This document shows, one piece after another, positions 1 to 11,386 of a DNA stretch of 64,000 bases; the stretch's first letter is position 1, and each line of letters opens with the position of its first letter. The stretch lies in the sequence record NC_028248.1, one strand, 5' to 3'. This DNA is from Escherichia phage slur16. The translations under genes were made by a program, and so were the position numbers. The notes under the pieces are model-generated. The model ran no database searches, was not told the origin of the DNA, and saw nothing but the letters and a program-made list of their open reading frames with translations.

Positions 1-2615
1 AACAAGTCAGTGGTGGCCTTGTTGGTATTGGCAATCAAGGTGTTGAGGTCAGTTTTTGCGGTAGTTATCTTGCCGTCAAGGGTGGTATAGTTTTTAGATA
101 CCGTCGCGTTTGTCTGACTAATCTTTTGATCCAGAGTTTCAGATGTCCTGTTCAAAAGATCCACAGTGGCCTGGTTAGTGCTCAAGATGCTTGCGTCAAG
201 TTCTGTTCTCTGAGTATTGATCTTACCATCCAGAGTTTTATCTCCGGCTAAATACCCGCTCTCAACTCCCTCTATCTGCTCTACCAGCTCACCTTTGGCG
301 GCAACCAATTTCTCATCTAAAGCCTCTGTCTTTTTGTTCAGAAGATCAGTAGTTGCTTTATTGGTTGTCTCAATCAGGGATGCCAATCTTCCACTTTCAG
401 TGTTCAGATCGTTGGTGAACTTGTTCTGTGCAGCAACAAGTTTCCTATCCAGCGCTGTGATATTGCCATTGACATCCTCAAACTTCTGAGTTGTCTCTGT
501 AACTACCGCACCTATTCTGTCTCCAAGTTGCTGGAATGCCTCATCTACCCTACCATCCATGTACCTGTTAAGTTCTGTGACACGATTTTCAACCTCTTCA
601 ATAGAGGAATCCAAAGTGCTCATCAACTCTTTATAAGTTTCTGTCTTTTTGAATTCAGCATCTATCTGAGGCATCAAATCCTCAATAGAGGTGTAGCAGC
701 GTGCAGCGCATTCTACAAACTGAGAACTACCAAAAGCGTTTGTGGTTCGAATATACCAATAATAAACCTTATCGTTCTGCAGACCTTCAGATGTCCAAGT
801 TGAACCAACACCCATACGGGTGGCGTTTGAAGTAACGGTTGCATCACTGGTGTCGGGCAACCTTGTCATACCGGATGTCCAAAAGTCATACTGGGTGCTA
901 ACACTTGCTAAATCCCTACTATGCGGAATCAAGGTGATAGCAAAGTATCCTTGCTTAACCTCTACAGAAACCGGAGCTTCAGGTGCCTGAATGTTAAACT
1001 CACAATACGCTTCTGGAGATACACCACCTTTATAAGATGTTGCAACAACAGTGGCTGTGTAGGAACCTTTAGTCAGACCTTCAACACGGACAAACTGCTC
1101 AACTGTCTGTGCTGTCCAAACAATCTCTCCGTTCTTTCTTACCTGCACAATATTTTGAGCGTAAGTCCCAACGTTGTCCCAGGCCAAAACACCGTGAGTT
1201 ACTTCCCCAGCTTGGAGAACGGAGTATCTGAAGTTTTGCGGCTGAGCTACACCGGACGGGGATATCGGAATATCTACATCGCCGGAATCCGGAAGTTGCC
1301 CTGTGGCATCATTCCACTCTTTAGCATCTTGACGAAGTTTTACCTTGACACCGCCCTTTTTGGTGAACTCCCATTCAAGAACCCTCATTTCTTGGCCCAC
1401 GATACCAATACTTGGGAGGTCCATTGTAACATAACGGCCAGGCTTAAATTTAAAACCTCGCATATTGCAGGTGACTTCAATAATCCTGCCAGCTCTAGCA
1501 CGTCTTAGGAAGATTGCAGAAACACGCTGAGCTTGATAAGGACTGGTAACAAAGCGATAATCTATATCGATTATCTTTCTTTCTCCATCCTTCTCTATCC
1601 ACTCTGGGACAAACACTGATGGAAAATCTGTTTCAGAATACCCTTTGGTCGGGCTAGTGAATCTGCCAGTTATTGTGTTGGATCTTTTGTCAAATGAGGC
1701 TTCCGGATAGATCTTAACCTCACCACAGACACAGTCCTCACTAAGTGTCATTGTTGCTGGGCCATAGTATGCACCAACCAGCAAACCATACTTACCAGCA
1801 ACATAACTAAGATCTGCACCGCAAGCTTTCAGCATTTCTGCCATAATACTTGCTGGGGCCTCATCCATGTCAAACTCACCGTTAATGGTGTAACGGCGCT
1901 CACTGGTTCCGTCTGCGTTTTTTACCGCCTCGTCGCATATGTTGGCAGCCTCCTTGAAGGACTCCCAGTTGATGGTTTCGTCAGGACATTTAAGGTACGT
2001 TCTTAAATAGTCTAGGATCACCAAGGCAGCGTTATTGGTGTACACCTCTTTACTGATACGAGGATCATAGCATTTTTTACCAATCTTGACGAGTGTAACG
2101 TTTGGCAACCCAAAAGGAAACTTGTTAGGGTCAAACCTGAAGCTGGCACGTAGCCAACTGATCCCTCTACCTATCATGTCAGGTGACCATGATGGGCAGT
2201 GTGTACCCATGAAAGGATCAGATGTTTTTCTGTCGTTATGTAGCTCCCACGATACCAGATCTCCATACGAGGAAATAGGATTACCGTCGATAAGTATATC
2301 TTCTATACCTTCCAGAGGGTGATTGGCAAGAACAATAGCACAATGGAGGGTTCTGTCGCTATCCTGCTCCAAAAACGCAAGCAATCCAGATGTGCGTGTC
2401 TTTCCATACACTACAGAGCAAGGTGCAGCAGAAGATCTGAGAAGCTTTTGTCTATCTTGCTGACTTCTGTAAGATTTGTTGCCCTCAAAAATCTTATCCA
2501 AAGTTCTGGTGGTCACAGTGTTCAGGCTGTCAGCCAGAGCTGCCTTGGATGCGTTCCAGTCATAACTTGAAGATCTTGCAGAAGCAACGATGTTATCAAT
2601 CATTGCAATTGGCAT
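1..2615 (-). CDS. Host-specificity / central tail fiber protein, lambda gpJ-like (partial; N-terminal ~870 aa in window, C-terminus beyond position 1)
   Basis: Minus-strand frame is open from ATG (revcomp of cat at 2613-2615, overlapping the stop of the upstream gene) to the window edge; spot-checked codons at 3-59, 900-959, 1440-1499 and 1983-2039 contain no stops. Not in the ORF track because it has no stop in the window. Translation contains GYFAITLIPH...YDFWTS...YYWYIRTTNAFGSSQFVE, which matches my recollection of the lambda J central region; the C-terminal part has tandem TN(K/Q)AT(T/V)DLLN repeats. Confidence 0.55.
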   Translation of the reverse strand, partial: MPIAMIDNIVASARSSSYDWNASKAALADSLNTVTTRTLDKIFEGNKSYRSQQDRQKLLRSSAAPCSVVYGKTRTSGLLAFLEQDSDRTLHCAIVLANHPLEGIEDILIDGNPISSYGDLVSWELHNDRKTSDPFMGTHCPSWSPDMIGRGISWLRASFRFDPNKFPFGLPNVTLVKIGKKCYDPRISKEVYTNNAALVILDYLRTYLKCPDETINWESFKEAANICDEAVKNADGTSERRYTINGEFDMDEAPASIMAEMLKACGADLSYVAGKYGLLVGAYYGPATMTLSEDCVCGEVKIYPEASFDKRSNTITGRFTSPTKGYSETDFPSVFVPEWIEKDGERKIIDIDYRFVTSPYQAQRVSAIFLRRARAGRIIEVTCNMRGFKFKPGRYVTMDLPSIGIVGQEMRVLEWEFTKKGGVKVKLRQDAKEWNDATGQLPDSGDVDIPISPSGVAQPQNFRYSVLQAGEVTHGVLAWDNVGTYAQNIVQVRKNGEIVWTAQTVEQFVRVEGLTKGSYTATVVATSYKGGVSPEAYCEFNIQAPEAPVSVEVKQGYFAITLIPHSRDLASVSTQYDFWTSGMTRLPDTSDATVTSNATRMGVGSTWTSEGLQNDKVYYWYIRTTNAFGSSQFVECAARCYTSIEDLMPQIDAEFKKTETYKELMSTLDSSIEEVENRVTELNRYMDGRVDEAFQQLGDRIGAVVTETTQKFEDVNGNITALDRKLVAAQNKFTNDLNTESGRLASLIETTNKATTDLLNKKTEALDEKLVAAKGELVEQIEGVESGYLAGDKTLDGKINTQRTELDASILSTNQATVDLLNRTSETLDQKISQTNATVSKNYTTLDGKITTAKTDLNTLIANTNKATTDL

Positions 2616-3052
2616 TAATACCTCCAGACATCAACAACGATAGAATCTTTCATGTCGAACATAAAGACCCCTTTATCACCTTTCGCCCAAATCTGGTTGT
2701 TCCAGAACACACCAGCGGTGAGCCCGTTCAGACCTTCGAAAATAACAATATCGCCACGCTGAACCTGTTTAGGAGTATCCAGTCGAGTCATAAAGAGATC
2801 AAAAATAGTAGGCAGGTGTGTAGTTTTGAAACGAAGCATGCACCATCTTTTGCTTTCCAACTCTGTTTTATACGTTCCTTCGAAGTTGGAAAGAAAATCT
2901 GTTCCGTATTGGGCATCAACACACTTAGCCGCAAAGGTGCAACAATCGTGGAATCCCCATTCAAAAGGTATGGTGGCCTCTTCGTCAAACACTTTCCACA
3001 ATCTTTCTTGCCAATCCACTAAACGAGGGTGTGTGCTCATTAAACCTCCCAA
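2615..3052 (-). CDS. Tail tip-associated protein, hypothetical (Cys/His-containing; possible NlpC/P60-like fold, lambda gpK-like position)
   Basis: 145-aa ORF immediately upstream of the J-like gene with a 1-nt stop/start overlap; FHDCCTF motif. Position and weak motif only. Confidence 0.3.
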   Translation of the reverse strand: MGGLMSTHPRLVDWQERLWKVFDEEATIPFEWGFHDCCTFAAKCVDAQYGTDFLSNFEGTYKTELESKRWCMLRFKTTHLPTIFDLFMTRLDTPKQVQRGDIVIFEGLNGLTAGVFWNNQIWAKGDKGVFMFDMKDSIVVDVWRY

Positions 3053-3606
3053 ATGATCGGGCGGCTCGCCACCTGATCCACATATTTAAAAAATCTGTCA
3101 TTATCGTTTCTTGAGCTGTGGCTTTCCTCCGTGTACCGATAAGGAAAACCTCTTAACCAACTGTTGAAGATGGAAGAGATGGATATGGACAGAGCACTGT
3201 TCTCACCTGTCTGAATAGCCATATCTGTTATAAGGCCGTCAAACAAGCCATTAGTTGTAACAGGCAGACCATTCTCCATAGCGGTAATATACAACGTGGC
3301 ACGACAACCAGAATACTCCGTCTTCAGTAGATCACCAACATACTTAGGATCAAACCCGTTCAATGTTGCTACCACAGATCCGAAGTTGGTGGCATCTTTC
3401 TCAGACACAGCAGTTAATGTTGCTGATCCACCTATCCCTATAAAATGTTGCCCCTCAATTACTACAACACCAGTGCCTGAGCACACCCTGACAGTTCCTG
3501 TCGGTAGCTCCAGCTTTGCAGCAATTAAGATCTCAACACCATCAAGCTCCAGCTTTTCAAGAAATAAATTATCTAATGGCGCTCTGATCATCTTAGAAAT
3601 CCTCAA
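3040..3606 (-). CDS. Hypothetical tail assembly/tail tip protein
   Basis: 188-aa ORF, co-oriented and overlapping its neighbours in the tail tip cluster. Confidence 0.3.
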   Translation of the reverse strand: MRISKMIRAPLDNLFLEKLELDGVEILIAAKLELPTGTVRVCSGTGVVVIEGQHFIGIGGSATLTAVSEKDATNFGSVVATLNGFDPKYVGDLLKTEYSGCRATLYITAMENGLPVTTNGLFDGLITDMAIQTGENSALSISISSIFNSWLRGFPYRYTEESHSSRNDNDRFFKYVDQVASRPIIWEV

Positions 3607-4183
3607 AGAAGTTGATAACTATATTATCACCTTTTTGCATAGCATCGACTTTTTGCTTAATTTTATAAATATCTCTGATATGAAACCTACCCTTCGGGGA
3701 TTGAGTTATTATCTTCATAGTGTCCCCTGCGGCAATAGGTTTTCTAAGTCTTGGAGATATGCTTATAACAGCAGACCCAACACCATCGCTACGCACTGGA
3801 GCTGTTACCACTTTCAATTCATCATTGACAGATATTTTATCCCCAGCTCTAGCTATATCCCTGTTCGGCTCCCAACCAACCGTCTTCAAAAAATCGTCGT
3901 TACCAGTAGGCCCAAGGGCGATTGGCTCATTAGCTGTAACTGAGTGACCGTAAGTTTTAATAAGAAAGATGTTTCCATCTTTATACACCTGATCAACAAA
4001 GCTCTTAAGCTCTAGCAACTGTGACTCGCTGATATTGGAAACCGTCAAAGTGCCTTTCCAGTTAGGTGTGGCATAGGTTACTTTTTGCGTTTTACCTGTA
4101 AACGGACTTTTAAACGTAACAATATCTGCCAGCAGCTCCAATCTAATATCTGGAAGGTATCTAGGCCTTTCCCATAAAAACAT
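3593..4183 (-). CDS. Hypothetical tail protein
   Basis: 196-aa ORF, first gene after the terminator at 4244-4275; no recognizable motif. Confidence 0.3.
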   Translation of the reverse strand: MFLWERPRYLPDIRLELLADIVTFKSPFTGKTQKVTYATPNWKGTLTVSNISESQLLELKSFVDQVYKDGNIFLIKTYGHSVTANEPIALGPTGNDDFLKTVGWEPNRDIARAGDKISVNDELKVVTAPVRSDGVGSAVISISPRLRKPIAAGDTMKIITQSPKGRFHIRDIYKIKQKVDAMQKGDNIVINFFEDF

Positions 4184-4243
4184 TGTGCCTCCAGGTTAAA
4201 CAATCATGATAGCTATTTTACCAGATTTTGAGTTAATACGCAA

Positions 4244-4275
4244 TACAAACAAAAAGCCCCCGCCGAAGCGAGGGC
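4244..4275 (-). terminator. Rho-independent terminator downstream of the long tail fiber gene
   Basis: Minus-strand hairpin GCCCUCGC-UUCG-GCGGGGGC (plus 4256-4275) followed by UUUUUGUUUG. Confidence 0.6.
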
Positions 4276-4282
4276 AGAACAG

Positions 4283-7200
4283 TTACTTCAGTTTCTCTTG
4301 CAATCCAGTAACAACCTCTGTCAATTTTTTAACCTGCTCCTCAAGGGCGGTTATTTTATCGTCCTGTTCCCTGCAAACCTGGACAAGCAAGCCTGTTACA
4401 GCTGCGTAGTCAACGTTATAGAACCTTTCCTCGGTCATCAGAGGAATACCGTCTTGAGTAGGACCTTCTATTTCCTTCCTTTTCACGAAAGATCCTACTG
4501 CCTCTGGCAATGCTTCCATAACCTCTTGAGCAATCACGCCTGCATAAGGCATACCATTCTCTTTCAAGGTGTAGGTATAGCCTTTCATCTTTCTAATTGC
4601 TTCCAGAGCGTTAGGTATGACCTCTATATTATCCTTCAGGTCTCTATCGGAACTTTGGCTAACAGTGGTACATTCTACCGTGCCGTTGACAGCAAAATAT
4701 CTTGATTTAGCCTCATCTGTCTTAGCTCCGCAGTGGAATACCCAGCTGGCGGCTGTTGAGTTATCACTTATCTGAAACTCAAGCACATTCTTCCTATCAG
4801 CGCCATTACCCCAATAGTACAACCTGCCTGTATTAGAAGGCATGTTCGAAGTGTTGGTAACATCAGCACCACCACCTGTGTGTATTGTGAACTCAGGTTC
4901 AAGATTGGACCCTTGAGTTTTTAAAGTGATACCCTTACCGCCAAGCTGCTGCCAATGGCCCCATGTGAAAACACCACCTATCGTTGTTCCATAACGCAGG
5001 AATTTTTCTCCAAGATATGTTGTATATTCCTGTACGCAACTCTCTGGAACGTTGGCATAGTTTCTATAGACAAGGAGAGTACCTGCCTGAGAGCATGGGT
5101 AGTTTCTATCAAGTGCGGCTTGAGCATTGGTCTCCTGATGATAAAAACCCTCTCTATCTCCTTTGTAGTCGTTAAGGTCATTAGTTCCCAACCCTTGACC
5201 ACGGTGCTGAATAACTTTGTTCCACGCTCTGTGGTTTCCCTGCTCTATGGAACGAGTGTACAGCTGGTCTAAACGACCTGCCATCTGGAAAGCGTAGTTT
5301 CCAGAAAAACCAACCGACAACCCTGCTACAACCATGGAACCTTCAGGTCCGTTGACGTTACCAGCCATTATTTTAGAAGGGTTGTTATTCCCGAACTGGT
5401 TGTTCCAGTCTGCACCTGTGTGGCATACAAAACCACCAGGAGCTGAGAAAGTGCCATCTTTGTTGAAGTTGTAGAATCTGTGAGCAGAACCTACAACATC
5501 ACGAACAATAACTTGACCAGCCTCTGGAGTAGATCTGAACTCTGCCTGACCTTTGAGACCAGCACCATTACCGCATTTAGAGGTAAACGTACCGTTAGTC
5601 AGATCCTCTGTCCCATCTGATGCACACTGGAAGCCTGCATTAGAGAATAACGCCTTTCTAGGACTGCCGTAGCACAAATAGTCAAGACCGTCTGCCCATA
5701 GCTCGACTTTTGGCATATTCATTTTGCTCATCACAGCATAGCGTTCAGCAGTGCCTATATAGTGCCACTGTGTGCCGCCACCAGTGTAGAACCCTGAAGT
5801 ACCTTTGAAGTCAACAATAGGTCTGGTATTGGTGTTATTATCTCCAAGAATAGCAAGATTCAAATCTGCTGACTGAAGAGGTGCAACGAACTTAACCCCA
5901 TCCTGATTGTCTGTTACAGCCCCAACCTGGTAATCTTGCTCTCTGGTAAACACTTCGACAACATTTCTACTTGCGTATATGCTGACAGGGAAAGCACGAG
6001 CCTCCACATAGAAAGCAACATACTCTTGTTTACCCCTTGTTGGAGCAATCATCCCAAGAAGTGCTTTTTCATTCTGGTAGAAATTTACTACCCCGTAGAA
6101 AGAGTCTCCCCTGTCCGTCCAGCCGCCAGTTCTATAGTGACACTGCAGGGTGGCACAGTTCATAGGGTCATTTCCAGATGAAGACCTGGTGACTATAGTA
6201 ATATCTGTACCTGTCGAAGGGGCGTAATACGGATCTGTTCTAACGATGATTGGGTAGTATTTCCCATCTTCCATCCCTGCGGTTCTTGGTAGTGTTAAGA
6301 AGTCTTTTACACCTGCTGCTATAGGAACTTTGAACAGATTCTGAGCATCTGCTAAAGTTGTAGCCCCGGTGCCACCTGCGGCTTGAGGTAGAGGTTCCCA
6401 CTTGGCCTTCCGGTTGTTATAAACACCCCATTCCAGAGTGCCGTTACCGGATTCGTCCATCCCACCATCCCAGATAACCATCTTGGCGGCTTTCTTGGAC
6501 CCCCAGAAGCCTCTTTCTGCTCCTGAACTACGAATCCACTCTCCAAGTCCCCAGTTTGTCAGCTGACCAGTAAGATCCCCAACCTGCATGTATTTAGGGC
6601 AGTCTAACACGCCGTCTTCGCGGAAACCTAAATATCTATGGGTTTCAGATCCTTTTGCACCTTTGTGCAGGTGGATTGTCAACCAAGCCTTATTGTCGTT
6701 TCTTACCTCAGAGTAGATCCTATATCCATGCTCAAGGACACCGTCAGCGCTGTATTTGTCCCCGTTAACAATACCTGATGCTGACTTAACATCAGCAGAA
6801 CTTTGAGACAGGTAAAGGTGCCCGAAGGTAGGGGAGTTTCTAGACCCGAGACCGATGTGCGATCTAAAGGTATCATCGTTACGAGGTCTGACCATTGGCT
6901 GCCATGCAGTCCACTGGTTTGTGTTGGCCTGATAGGTTCTCAAATACCAAACATCCACGTTAGAGAATGGATAGTATTCCTGACGACAACCTGTACCGCC
7001 GTTAGCATTGTTCTGCCAAACAATCAAGTGACCAGCACCAGAACCTGCAGGGTAACCATTTGCCTCAGTTGCATAAGCAGTCATCGGCTGGTAGTATACA
7101 CCATCCTGATTACCAGTCAAGTTATTGATATTGAAATTTGGCTCAAGGGCTGCACGTTGCTTATAGAAAGCCCCGATATTGATACGGACTCCAGCGGCAT

Positions 7201-8083
7201 CTCTGGCCCCCGTACCGCCTTGCTCTATAGCAAGAGGTTGCCACGAGGCTGTTTGTTGGTTCCACATGCCCCAACGGCCTGTTGCGTCAAGCTGCAAGTA
7301 CCCTGCCGTGTTTAAATCATCTCCAGCACGGATAACTGTTCTTGTTGGGTTGTTTGCCTCCAGGCGTTTAAATTCATCACGAAGTGCTATTCTTTTTGTT
7401 GTTGCTACACCGTTGGTTACTGCGATGGTATACATGGCTCCGGATGTAGCGCCACGGAAAATACCATCAACAGTTGTAGTATCACGACGAGATACCACAC
7501 CGTTCAGAAATTTTTCACCAGCTGCTACAGAAGGGTAGTTGGTGGTTCTTCCCTCTTCAATAACTGCAGGACCCACAAAGTTATCAAGGTGAATAACATC
7601 ACCTACAGTGTGCACCGTACCAAAATCTACACGCTGTGCAAGTGCTTTAGCATCGTTAGCTGTCTGAACAGTAACATCCATTACATCCTGGACAGACTGC
7701 CCTTCGGCTGTCATGATCATAGATGCGCCAATGGTAGATTCCAGCTCCTCCCTTAGGGACGGGTCAGTATATACCATCCATGCAGCGTCAGTAATCCCAC
7801 CATCGGAGTACGGTGAAGATAGTGCAGGAACAGTGTGTGGAAATTCGCCTTTCCAACGCAGGTAGAGATCTTCCTCTTCGAAATAGGCAAAATCCATTGG
7901 GCCGTTTAACTTACCACCTTCCTTAAAGGAGATTACATGAGAAACAGTCCCATCCACATGGACAACATCGCCAATTTTTACACGACGGGTCAGGTCTGGT
8001 TGTTGAACAACCAGGTAATCATCCTCTGTCACTGCGGTAGTGGCAGGAAGAGATTCAATTCTGACAACTTTAATATCAGCCAT
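4283..8083 (-). CDS. Long tail fiber protein with C-terminal intramolecular chaperone (peptidase S74-like) domain
   Basis: 1266-aa ORF. C-terminus SDRDLKDNIEVIPNALEAIRKMKGYTYTLKENG...ERFYNVDYAAVTGLLVQ plus terminal coiled coil matches the autoproteolytic chaperone domain of endosialidase / T5 L-shaped fiber type. N-terminal ~100 aa are paralogous to the 222-aa protein at 10718-11386. RBS AGGAG precedes the ATG. Confidence 0.75.
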   Translation of the reverse strand: MADIKVVRIESLPATTAVTEDDYLVVQQPDLTRRVKIGDVVHVDGTVSHVISFKEGGKLNGPMDFAYFEEEDLYLRWKGEFPHTVPALSSPYSDGGITDAAWMVYTDPSLREELESTIGASMIMTAEGQSVQDVMDVTVQTANDAKALAQRVDFGTVHTVGDVIHLDNFVGPAVIEEGRTTNYPSVAAGEKFLNGVVSRRDTTTVDGIFRGATSGAMYTIAVTNGVATTKRIALRDEFKRLEANNPTRTVIRAGDDLNTAGYLQLDATGRWGMWNQQTASWQPLAIEQGGTGARDAAGVRINIGAFYKQRAALEPNFNINNLTGNQDGVYYQPMTAYATEANGYPAGSGAGHLIVWQNNANGGTGCRQEYYPFSNVDVWYLRTYQANTNQWTAWQPMVRPRNDDTFRSHIGLGSRNSPTFGHLYLSQSSADVKSASGIVNGDKYSADGVLEHGYRIYSEVRNDNKAWLTIHLHKGAKGSETHRYLGFREDGVLDCPKYMQVGDLTGQLTNWGLGEWIRSSGAERGFWGSKKAAKMVIWDGGMDESGNGTLEWGVYNNRKAKWEPLPQAAGGTGATTLADAQNLFKVPIAAGVKDFLTLPRTAGMEDGKYYPIIVRTDPYYAPSTGTDITIVTRSSSGNDPMNCATLQCHYRTGGWTDRGDSFYGVVNFYQNEKALLGMIAPTRGKQEYVAFYVEARAFPVSIYASRNVVEVFTREQDYQVGAVTDNQDGVKFVAPLQSADLNLAILGDNNTNTRPIVDFKGTSGFYTGGGTQWHYIGTAERYAVMSKMNMPKVELWADGLDYLCYGSPRKALFSNAGFQCASDGTEDLTNGTFTSKCGNGAGLKGQAEFRSTPEAGQVIVRDVVGSAHRFYNFNKDGTFSAPGGFVCHTGADWNNQFGNNNPSKIMAGNVNGPEGSMVVAGLSVGFSGNYAFQMAGRLDQLYTRSIEQGNHRAWNKVIQHRGQGLGTNDLNDYKGDREGFYHQETNAQAALDRNYPCSQAGTLLVYRNYANVPESCVQEYTTYLGEKFLRYGTTIGGVFTWGHWQQLGGKGITLKTQGSNLEPEFTIHTGGGADVTNTSNMPSNTGRLYYWGNGADRKNVLEFQISDNSTAASWVFHCGAKTDEAKSRYFAVNGTVECTTVSQSSDRDLKDNIEVIPNALEAIRKMKGYTYTLKENGMPYAGVIAQEVMEALPEAVGSFVKRKEIEGPTQDGIPLMTEERFYNVDYAAVTGLLVQVCREQDDKITALEEQVKKLTEVVTGLQEKLK

Positions 8084-10717: not shown

Positions 10718-11386
10718 TTAGATAGCTCCTGCGATAATCAGTGCCCCGTACCAAGTTAACCCGTTGTCGTAGGTTTCCAACTTGAAAATATCTGTTGCAC
10801 CAGCTGTAAATGTTAGGATAGGATCTCTTCCGTAGGACCATTTAACATTACCAGGCCAATAGACTTTGTTGCCGCCAGAGGTCTGAGTAATGCATACGGT
10901 TATAGTTCTCGCCACTCCTTCAAGACCTTCTGTTTGATTTTCAAAAGAGATTGTGGTATTTGAAGTTAGTCGAACCTTAAAGGTATCCGCAACTTCAAGA
11001 TCCATATCAAGCTGACCACCGATAGATCCGTAATCAACTATTCTGCCAGAAGAAGTTGCAGCAAGCTCACCAAAAACAGACCAGGCATTTGCAGACACAC
11101 CCCCAGCACCCTCTACAGTGGAGTCTGGGAGGATTATTTTAGGATAATCCCCGTTCCACGTGTAGTAGCGCTTAGTTTCTGGGTCATAAGCAAAGTCCTT
11201 CTTGCTCTTAAGATAACCACCCTCTGTGAAATAGACTATCTTAGTAATGCTAAGATCGTTGACAACATCGTCAATCTTAGCCTTTCTTGTCCCATCAGTC
11301 TGGTTGACAACCAAGAAGTCATCACTCAAGACTGTTTCTGCATCTTCAAGATCTGGAATTGGTATTGTAGGATAAGCTACAGCCAT
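10718..11386 (-). CDS. Short fiber / adaptor protein carrying a tail fiber N-terminal anchor domain
   Basis: 222-aa ORF. DDFLVVNQTDGTRKAKIDDVV...FTEGGYLKSKKDFAY...ANAWSVF aligns with DDYLVVQQPDLTRRVKIGDVV...FKEGGKLNGPMDFAY...DAAWMVY at the N-terminus of the 1266-aa fiber. Confidence 0.5.
   Translation of the reverse strand: MAVAYPTIPIPDLEDAETVLSDDFLVVNQTDGTRKAKIDDVVNDLSITKIVYFTEGGYLKSKKDFAYDPETKRYYTWNGDYPKIILPDSTVEGAGGVSANAWSVFGELAATSSGRIVDYGSIGGQLDMDLEVADTFKVRLTSNTTISFENQTEGLEGVARTITVCITQTSGGNKVYWPGNVKWSYGRDPILTFTAGATDIFKLETYDNGLTWYGALIIAGAI

Follow-up and report, generated by a model that had tools for sequence, protein, structure and literature searches.

The window, meaning the whole 64-kb stretch of DNA analyzed here, was identical (100%), in reverse complement, to Escherichia phage slur12 (LN881735), an rV5-like Vequintavirus. 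Positions 4283..8083 on its minus strand hold a gene of 1266 codons plus stop, which was assigned as a lateral tail fiber gene from the open reading frame list, PHROG 6578, and its orthologues. By megablast, the gene matched positions 69688..73488 of the slur12 record at 100%, where its product, CUL03174.1, is named a "hypothetical protein." PHROG 6578 ("tail fiber protein") covered the whole fiber with 1756 bits, and the orthologues of the protein, judged by sequence, are rV5 gp41 and BASEL bas51_0027 and bas54_0027; the WalterGehring orthologue, bas51_0027, is annotated "lateral tail fiber protein." The 1266-aa product of the window gene belongs to the lateral tail fibers of an rV5-like myovirus.

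Immediately downstream, the fiber gene is followed by genes homologous to those for a distal tail protein, for a tail protein, and for a DUF6950 protein, and a glycosidase-type fiber is encoded upstream. Among the flanking genes examined, neither a separate fiber chaperone nor a gp38-like adhesin was found adjacent to the fiber gene; the lack of an adjacent chaperone is consistent with a fiber that carries its own. The "tail fiber chaperone" of relatives is encoded several kilobases away, between two short tail fiber genes. These downstream genes, at positions 1-4183 (minus strand), encode homologues of phrog_1302 (distal tail protein) and phrog_2048 (tail protein), the DUF6950 protein (annotated in relatives as a cell wall hydrolase), and also a 1279-aa fibronectin-III fiber, which is truncated at the window start. 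The fibronectin-III fiber was put in COG4733, phage-related tail component, by Kropinski et al. (2013; PMC3606486), and the gene set of this region resembles a siphovirus-type tail tip within a myovirus baseplate region. Farther along, the GC skew changes from negative to positive at ~36 kb, where minus-strand open reading frames give way to plus-strand ones; this switch marks the boundary between divergent transcription units.

Near its N terminus, the fiber contains a Tail_spike_N (TSP1/Gp66-type) domain (aa 46-103; 7775..7948, minus strand), identified with Pfam PF18668 (E 2.2e-10, 40.9 bits, cutoff 25). A PDB sequence search with the fiber also matched the N-terminal parts of tailspikes and tail fibers 9occ, 9lna, 9d84, and 4qnl. 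The Tail_spike_N domain is likely the virion-attachment part of the fiber. PF18668 was also present in a 222-aa protein encoded two genes upstream (10718-11386, minus strand), and the common domain suggests that the two proteins dock alike on the virion or attach to each other in the manner of branched tailspike complexes. Moreover, the fiber contains an internal duplication: aa ~318-455 and ~969-1146 (window 4652-7132) are 27-28% identical to each other and have in common the motif ...DGxYxQ...NYP...AGxLxVxxNxAN...C.QEY.... The second copy (aa ~969-1146) weakly matched the R2 pyocin fiber 6ct8 (E 0.09).

The opposite end of the protein had drawn attention in a previous reading of this DNA made without database searches (the sequence-only reading), which quoted the C terminus as ...VSQSSDRDLKDNIEVIPNALEAIRKMKGYTYTLKENG...YNVDYAAVTGLLVQVCREQDDKITALEEQVKKLTEVVTGLQEKLK and assigned it to a peptidase S74-like chaperone domain, with a profile search against that family as the proposed check. 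The quoted residues occur exactly in the open reading frame at 4283..8083 (minus strand), and the profile search was clearly positive. PF13884 (Peptidase_S74) matched aa 1145-1196 (4496..4651, minus strand) far beyond chance (E 7.5e-15, 55.4 bits, gathering cutoff 22) and spanned profile positions 1-57 of 58. Nearly all of 120 homologues of the last 185 aa, among the matches listed, carried the same family. The domain lies at the extreme C terminus and ends at the stop codon of the 1266-aa tail fiber frame. HMM searches of six-frame translations detected no second S74 domain in the 64-kb window or in the rest of the slur12 tail fiber module, and tblastn of the whole slur12 record returned one place only with an S74 domain. 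An NCBIfam search of the fiber gave no family match.

We modeled the last 185 aa of the fiber as a monomer with AlphaFold2, using 85 homologue sequences, and obtained a pLDDT of 88.9. Past Ser1145, the model displays the elements of the S74 fold: a small mixed alpha/beta part, which corresponds to the Pfam match at aa 1145-1196; a long beta-hairpin at aa 1196-1224 (4412..4498, minus strand; in the 185-aa model, strands 115-123 and 135-143); and a terminal helix of 40 residues at aa 1226-1265 (4289..4408, minus strand; helix 145-184, pLDDT 94-98). By analogy, the hairpin is the putative equivalent of the T5 pb1 "tentacle" that wraps the folded fiber tip. The helix has a heptad pattern with hydrophobic residues at 9 of the 12 a/d positions, and the model suggests that it is the trimerizing coiled coil of the chaperone domain. 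A coiled coil had indeed been anticipated, but as an extra element after the domain, whereas the C-terminal helix of the domain itself forms it. The intramolecular chaperone domain as a whole comprises aa 1145-1266 (4286..4651, minus strand), that is, 122 aa (13.7 kDa) counted from Ser1145 and not the ~130 aa first estimated. The interval proposed for it, 4283-4700, does contain the domain but extends beyond it, over the stop codon on one side and the final 16 residues of the mature fiber on the other.

Foldseek searches against the PDB gave significant matches only to 3GW6 (the K1F endosialidase chaperone) and 7DC3 (the MyRF ICA domain), with the next at E ~0.8, and fold searches of the domain returned known intramolecular chaperone structures only, the T5 L-shaped fiber included. 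The rmsd values were high and the TM scores modest, as expected when a single chain is modeled for a domain whose chains intertwine in the trimer. A PDB search by sequence with the fiber C terminus found S16 gp37 (6F45, E 7.6e-5) and the MyRF ICA domain (7DC3); the K1F and T5 structures were not found by this sequence-only search and were both found by the fold search. The likeness to the endosialidase and T5 L-shaped fiber type, named in the sequence-only reading, is thus borne out by fold and, as described below, by alignment of the Ser/Lys dyad.

Two residues at the start of the domain are predicted, from conservation and from alignment with T5 and K1F, to be catalytic: Ser1145 (codon 4649..4651, minus strand) as the nucleophile and scissile-site serine and Lys1150 (codon 4634..4636, minus strand) as the general base, in S-x4-K spacing. 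Position 1145 is Ser in 81 of the 85 homologues and position 1150 is Lys in 84, and position 1144 is variable among them (Y, S, Q, F, or G); therefore, the conserved serine is Ser1145, not Ser1144. To compare known systems, T5 pb1 and K1F gp17 were translated from the genome records and their residue numbering was checked. T5 reads ...NGTINT-S1264-DARL-K1269 and K1F reads ...PIVT-S911-NGER-K916; in a four-way alignment, Ser1145/Lys1150 were invariant with T5 Ser1264/Lys1269 and K1F Ser911/Lys916. By profile match, dyad, fold, and C-terminal position alike, the fiber belongs to the S74 chaperone family.

In T5 pb1, the Thr1263-Ser1264 bond is cut autoproteolytically, Lys1269 activates the serine, and S1264A prevents the cut (PMC4690869). 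By analogy with T5 pb1 and from the position of the conserved serine, the fiber is predicted to be cut between Ser1144 and Ser1145, giving a mature fiber of 125.1 kDa (aa 1-1144; 4652..8083, minus strand) and the 13.7-kDa, 122-aa domain. In T5 and K1F, an Asp/Arg pair upstream of the serine (T5 Asp1239/Arg1250 and K1F Asp886/Arg897, 25 and 14 residues before it) is contributed by the neighboring chain and couples cleavage to correct trimer folding. The 12-residue loop with this pair is missing in the window fiber and in MaxBurger, which have 6 extra residues before the serine; Arg1128 of the window fiber, which might take over the role, lies 17 residues before it. Because this "folding sensor" has no clear counterparts in the window fiber, its trimer-sensing step may differ in detail from that of T5 and K1F. 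The failure of the sensor to align would also suit a different fate for the domain, namely, that it folds the fiber and then stays uncleaved on the virion as a permanent C-terminal trimerization cap. However, the Ser-x4-Lys dyad kept in 81 to 84 of the 85 homologues would be needless for a purely structural cap, and in T5 pb1, a domain left uncleaved covers the receptor-binding tip, and competition for adsorption is lost (PMC4690869).

Virions of two relatives bear on the same question. The RBPseg study (Sci Adv 2025) imaged virions of the Vequintaviruses MaxBurger and EmilHeitz and fitted the MaxBurger orthologue as a trimeric fiber in virion cryo-EM maps (PMC12143355). In that study, the MaxBurger fiber "RBP_11" has a C-terminal peptidase S74 domain for which the map contains no density, "as expected," and EmilHeitz "RBP_10" has the domain order of RBP_11 but a lectin-like head at its C terminus (PMC12143355). 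RBP_11 was linked to bas54_0027 (QXV82547) indirectly, via locus comparison with EmilHeitz; since the MaxBurger and EmilHeitz loci fit the descriptions in the paper, the observation applies to the orthologue of our fiber. MaxBurger bas54_0027 is 86% identical to the window fiber and has the same site, QSSDRDLKDNI. By analogy, the MaxBurger map indirectly supports cleavage and release in the window fiber, although the absent density could stem from flexible fiber ends instead. For rV5, mass spectrometry of the virion proteome detected gp41 with 8 peptides and 8.1% coverage (PMC3606486), all of which map upstream of the S74 domain (Table S5, PMC3606486). About 6 of the 56 detectable tryptic peptides fall in the domain, and none would appear among 8 by chance with a probability of ~0.4 if the domain were present; at 8% coverage, we therefore dropped this distribution as evidence of cleavage. 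The rV5 proteomics are equally compatible with retention of the domain. With the MaxBurger map and the dyad against it, a permanent cap seems to us quite improbable.

The S74 feature has been published before for this family of genes: Kropinski et al. (2013) described rV5 gp41 as "L-shaped tail fiber protein; PF13884.1 Peptidase_S74," with an HHpred match to 3GW6 plus a coiled coil (PMC3606486), and RBPseg (2025) included Vequintavirinae in its list of subfamilies that have this self-cleaving domain (PMC12143355). rV5 gp41 and the Vequintavirus orthologues MaxBurger bas54_0027 and WalterGehring bas51_0027 occupy the same locus, are 86-99% identical at 1266-1272 aa, and have the same QSSDRDLKDNI site; relative to the rV5/MaxBurger allele the differences are allelic only, with the distal half of the slur12 allele (aa 661-1144) divergent. 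T5 pb1 is ~31% identical over the C-terminal region that aligns, and the alignment has several large gaps; the fiber bodies are unrelated, the segment before the serine that holds T5 Asp1239/Arg1250 is not conserved, and the C-terminal helix of the window fiber is longer. The K1F endoNF chaperone domain (3GW6), the MEROPS S74 type example, is 17% identical, with large insertions in K1F, and matures a podovirus sialidase tailspike, whereas the window protein is a myovirus fiber without a sialidase domain. The MyRF ICA domain (7DC3) comes from a eukaryotic membrane-bound transcription factor, and its cleavage releases the transcription factor domain instead of maturing a virion fiber. S16 gp37 (6F45) is the best sequence match among solved structures and has in common with the window fiber the motif SSDR-x-[IL]K-x-[DN]I and a preceding G-x-[IV]-x-C; its domain is reported to be removed by autoproteolysis after trimerization (PMC7289586). 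By analogy, the fiber would work like T5 pb1, K1F endoNF, and S16 gp37.

The name of the K1F enzyme has also given rise to another identification, in which the fiber is an endosialidase (endo-N-acetylneuraminidase) tailspike, as its orthologue in phage PDX (MG963916) is annotated and as the HHpred and fold matches to 3GW6 might be taken to imply. Yet the only part of the fiber that matches K1F endoNF is the C-terminal chaperone domain, 3GW6 consists of the chaperone domain only, and Pfam and PDB sequence searches across all 1266 aa revealed no sialidase or other glycosidase family. Lacking a catalytic domain, the fiber is effectively refuted as an endosialidase, and we give this identity almost no credence. 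The name in PDX appears to have been transferred from the chaperone-domain match to the K1F endosialidase.

Comparison with MaxBurger revealed uneven divergence along the fiber. Over the first 660 aa, identity is 99% and dS is 0.08, whereas dS exceeds 1 in the rest; the distal tip, taken as aa 961-1144, is only 53% identical at the amino acid level, and the chaperone domain retains 91% amino acid identity with a dN/dS of 0.05 at a dS of ~1.2. Thus, the fiber gene has a mosaic structure, with strong protein-level conservation in the chaperone domain. In EmilHeitz, the fiber bas49_0026 (MZ501062 4248-9016; cf. window 4184-4945) is 95% identical over aa 1-1046, and past ~aa 1046 it has an unrelated C terminus of ~430 aa with a weak ConA-like lectin signal and no S74 match. 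These comparisons point to a recombination breakpoint near aa 660 (versus MaxBurger), besides one near aa 1046 (versus EmilHeitz), and suggest that the distal tip and the chaperone domain are exchanged together, as a single module. The EmilHeitz C-terminal module swap begins right where the second copy of the internal fiber repeat ends. A mosaic gene whose C-terminal module is exchanged between phages might harbor the domain merely as a decaying, functionless remnant carried by recombination. Decay is unlikely because the domain is so strongly conserved at the protein level, in terms of both its dN/dS at this synonymous divergence and its amino acid identity; moreover, the reading frame runs uninterrupted to the stop, the dyad has been retained, and the fold is predicted with confidence. 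We regard a remnant as barely conceivable.

Altogether, we favor, with a probability of nearly 0.9, a reading in which the S74 chaperone domain folds the fiber trimer and then self-cleaves and is released. In the proposed maturation, the C-terminal coiled coil of the domain would bring three nascent chains into register, and the hairpin "tentacles" together with the alpha/beta part would then template folding of the intertwined distal fiber tip. After correct folding of the trimer, Lys1150 would activate Ser1145 for the cut at the Ser1144-Ser1145 bond in each chain. The 13.7-kDa domain would leave, and the 125-kDa mature fiber would remain with its newly exposed tip free for the receptor. What the analysis establishes is that the domain is there, with its fold, its dyad, and the selective constraint on it; the cut, the bond at which it falls, and its coupling to trimerization are inferred.

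The variable distal tip of the mature fiber, delimited by the EmilHeitz and MaxBurger comparisons to aa 1047-1144 (4652..4945, minus strand), varies more than any other part of the protein and is presumably both the substrate of the chaperone domain and the receptor-binding end. As an extension of release by self-cleavage, the tip so exposed might instead be where a separate adhesin docks, as in S16 gp37/gp38. S16 gp37, the closest solved relative by sequence, carries gp38 at its tip, and the RBPseg authors raised this possibility for MaxBurger (PMC12143355). However, no adhesin density was present on the fiber in that paper (PMC12143355), none of the genes flanking the window fiber gene, a distal-tail-protein homologue and a glycosidase-type fiber, is gp38-like, and high variability of the tip is expected of a direct receptor binder. 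We consider an adhesin platform unlikely.

Directly after the EmilHeitz fiber gene is a 110-aa open reading frame, bas49_0027 (phrog_1361, function unknown), which slur12 does not have. Its product may be a separate chaperone or a partner that travels with a head that does not chaperone itself. A broader and more tentative idea, which we find conceivable but doubtful, is that aa ~1047-1266 of the Vequintavirus fiber form a self-sufficient "fold-and-release" cassette, swappable at a conserved knob-like domain boundary at ~aa 1046 for heads unable to fold alone, such as the EmilHeitz lectin-like head with the 110-aa phrog_1361 open reading frame as its own trans-acting partner gene; cleavage might then also expose an adhesin docking site.

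With regard to annotation, a gene listed as a "hypothetical protein" or an endosialidase becomes a lateral tail fiber with a C-terminal self-cleaving chaperone domain. Host-range engineering in rV5-like phages should shift the receptor-binding tip together with the chaperone domain, and expression of the fiber is predicted to yield a 125-kDa mature product. Finally, more than 10 "Campylobacter phage" records within MG065644-MG065690 (host Campylobacter jejuni) are 82-94% identical to the fiber gene and have rV5-like genome sizes; they look like mislabeled or contaminating coliphages.
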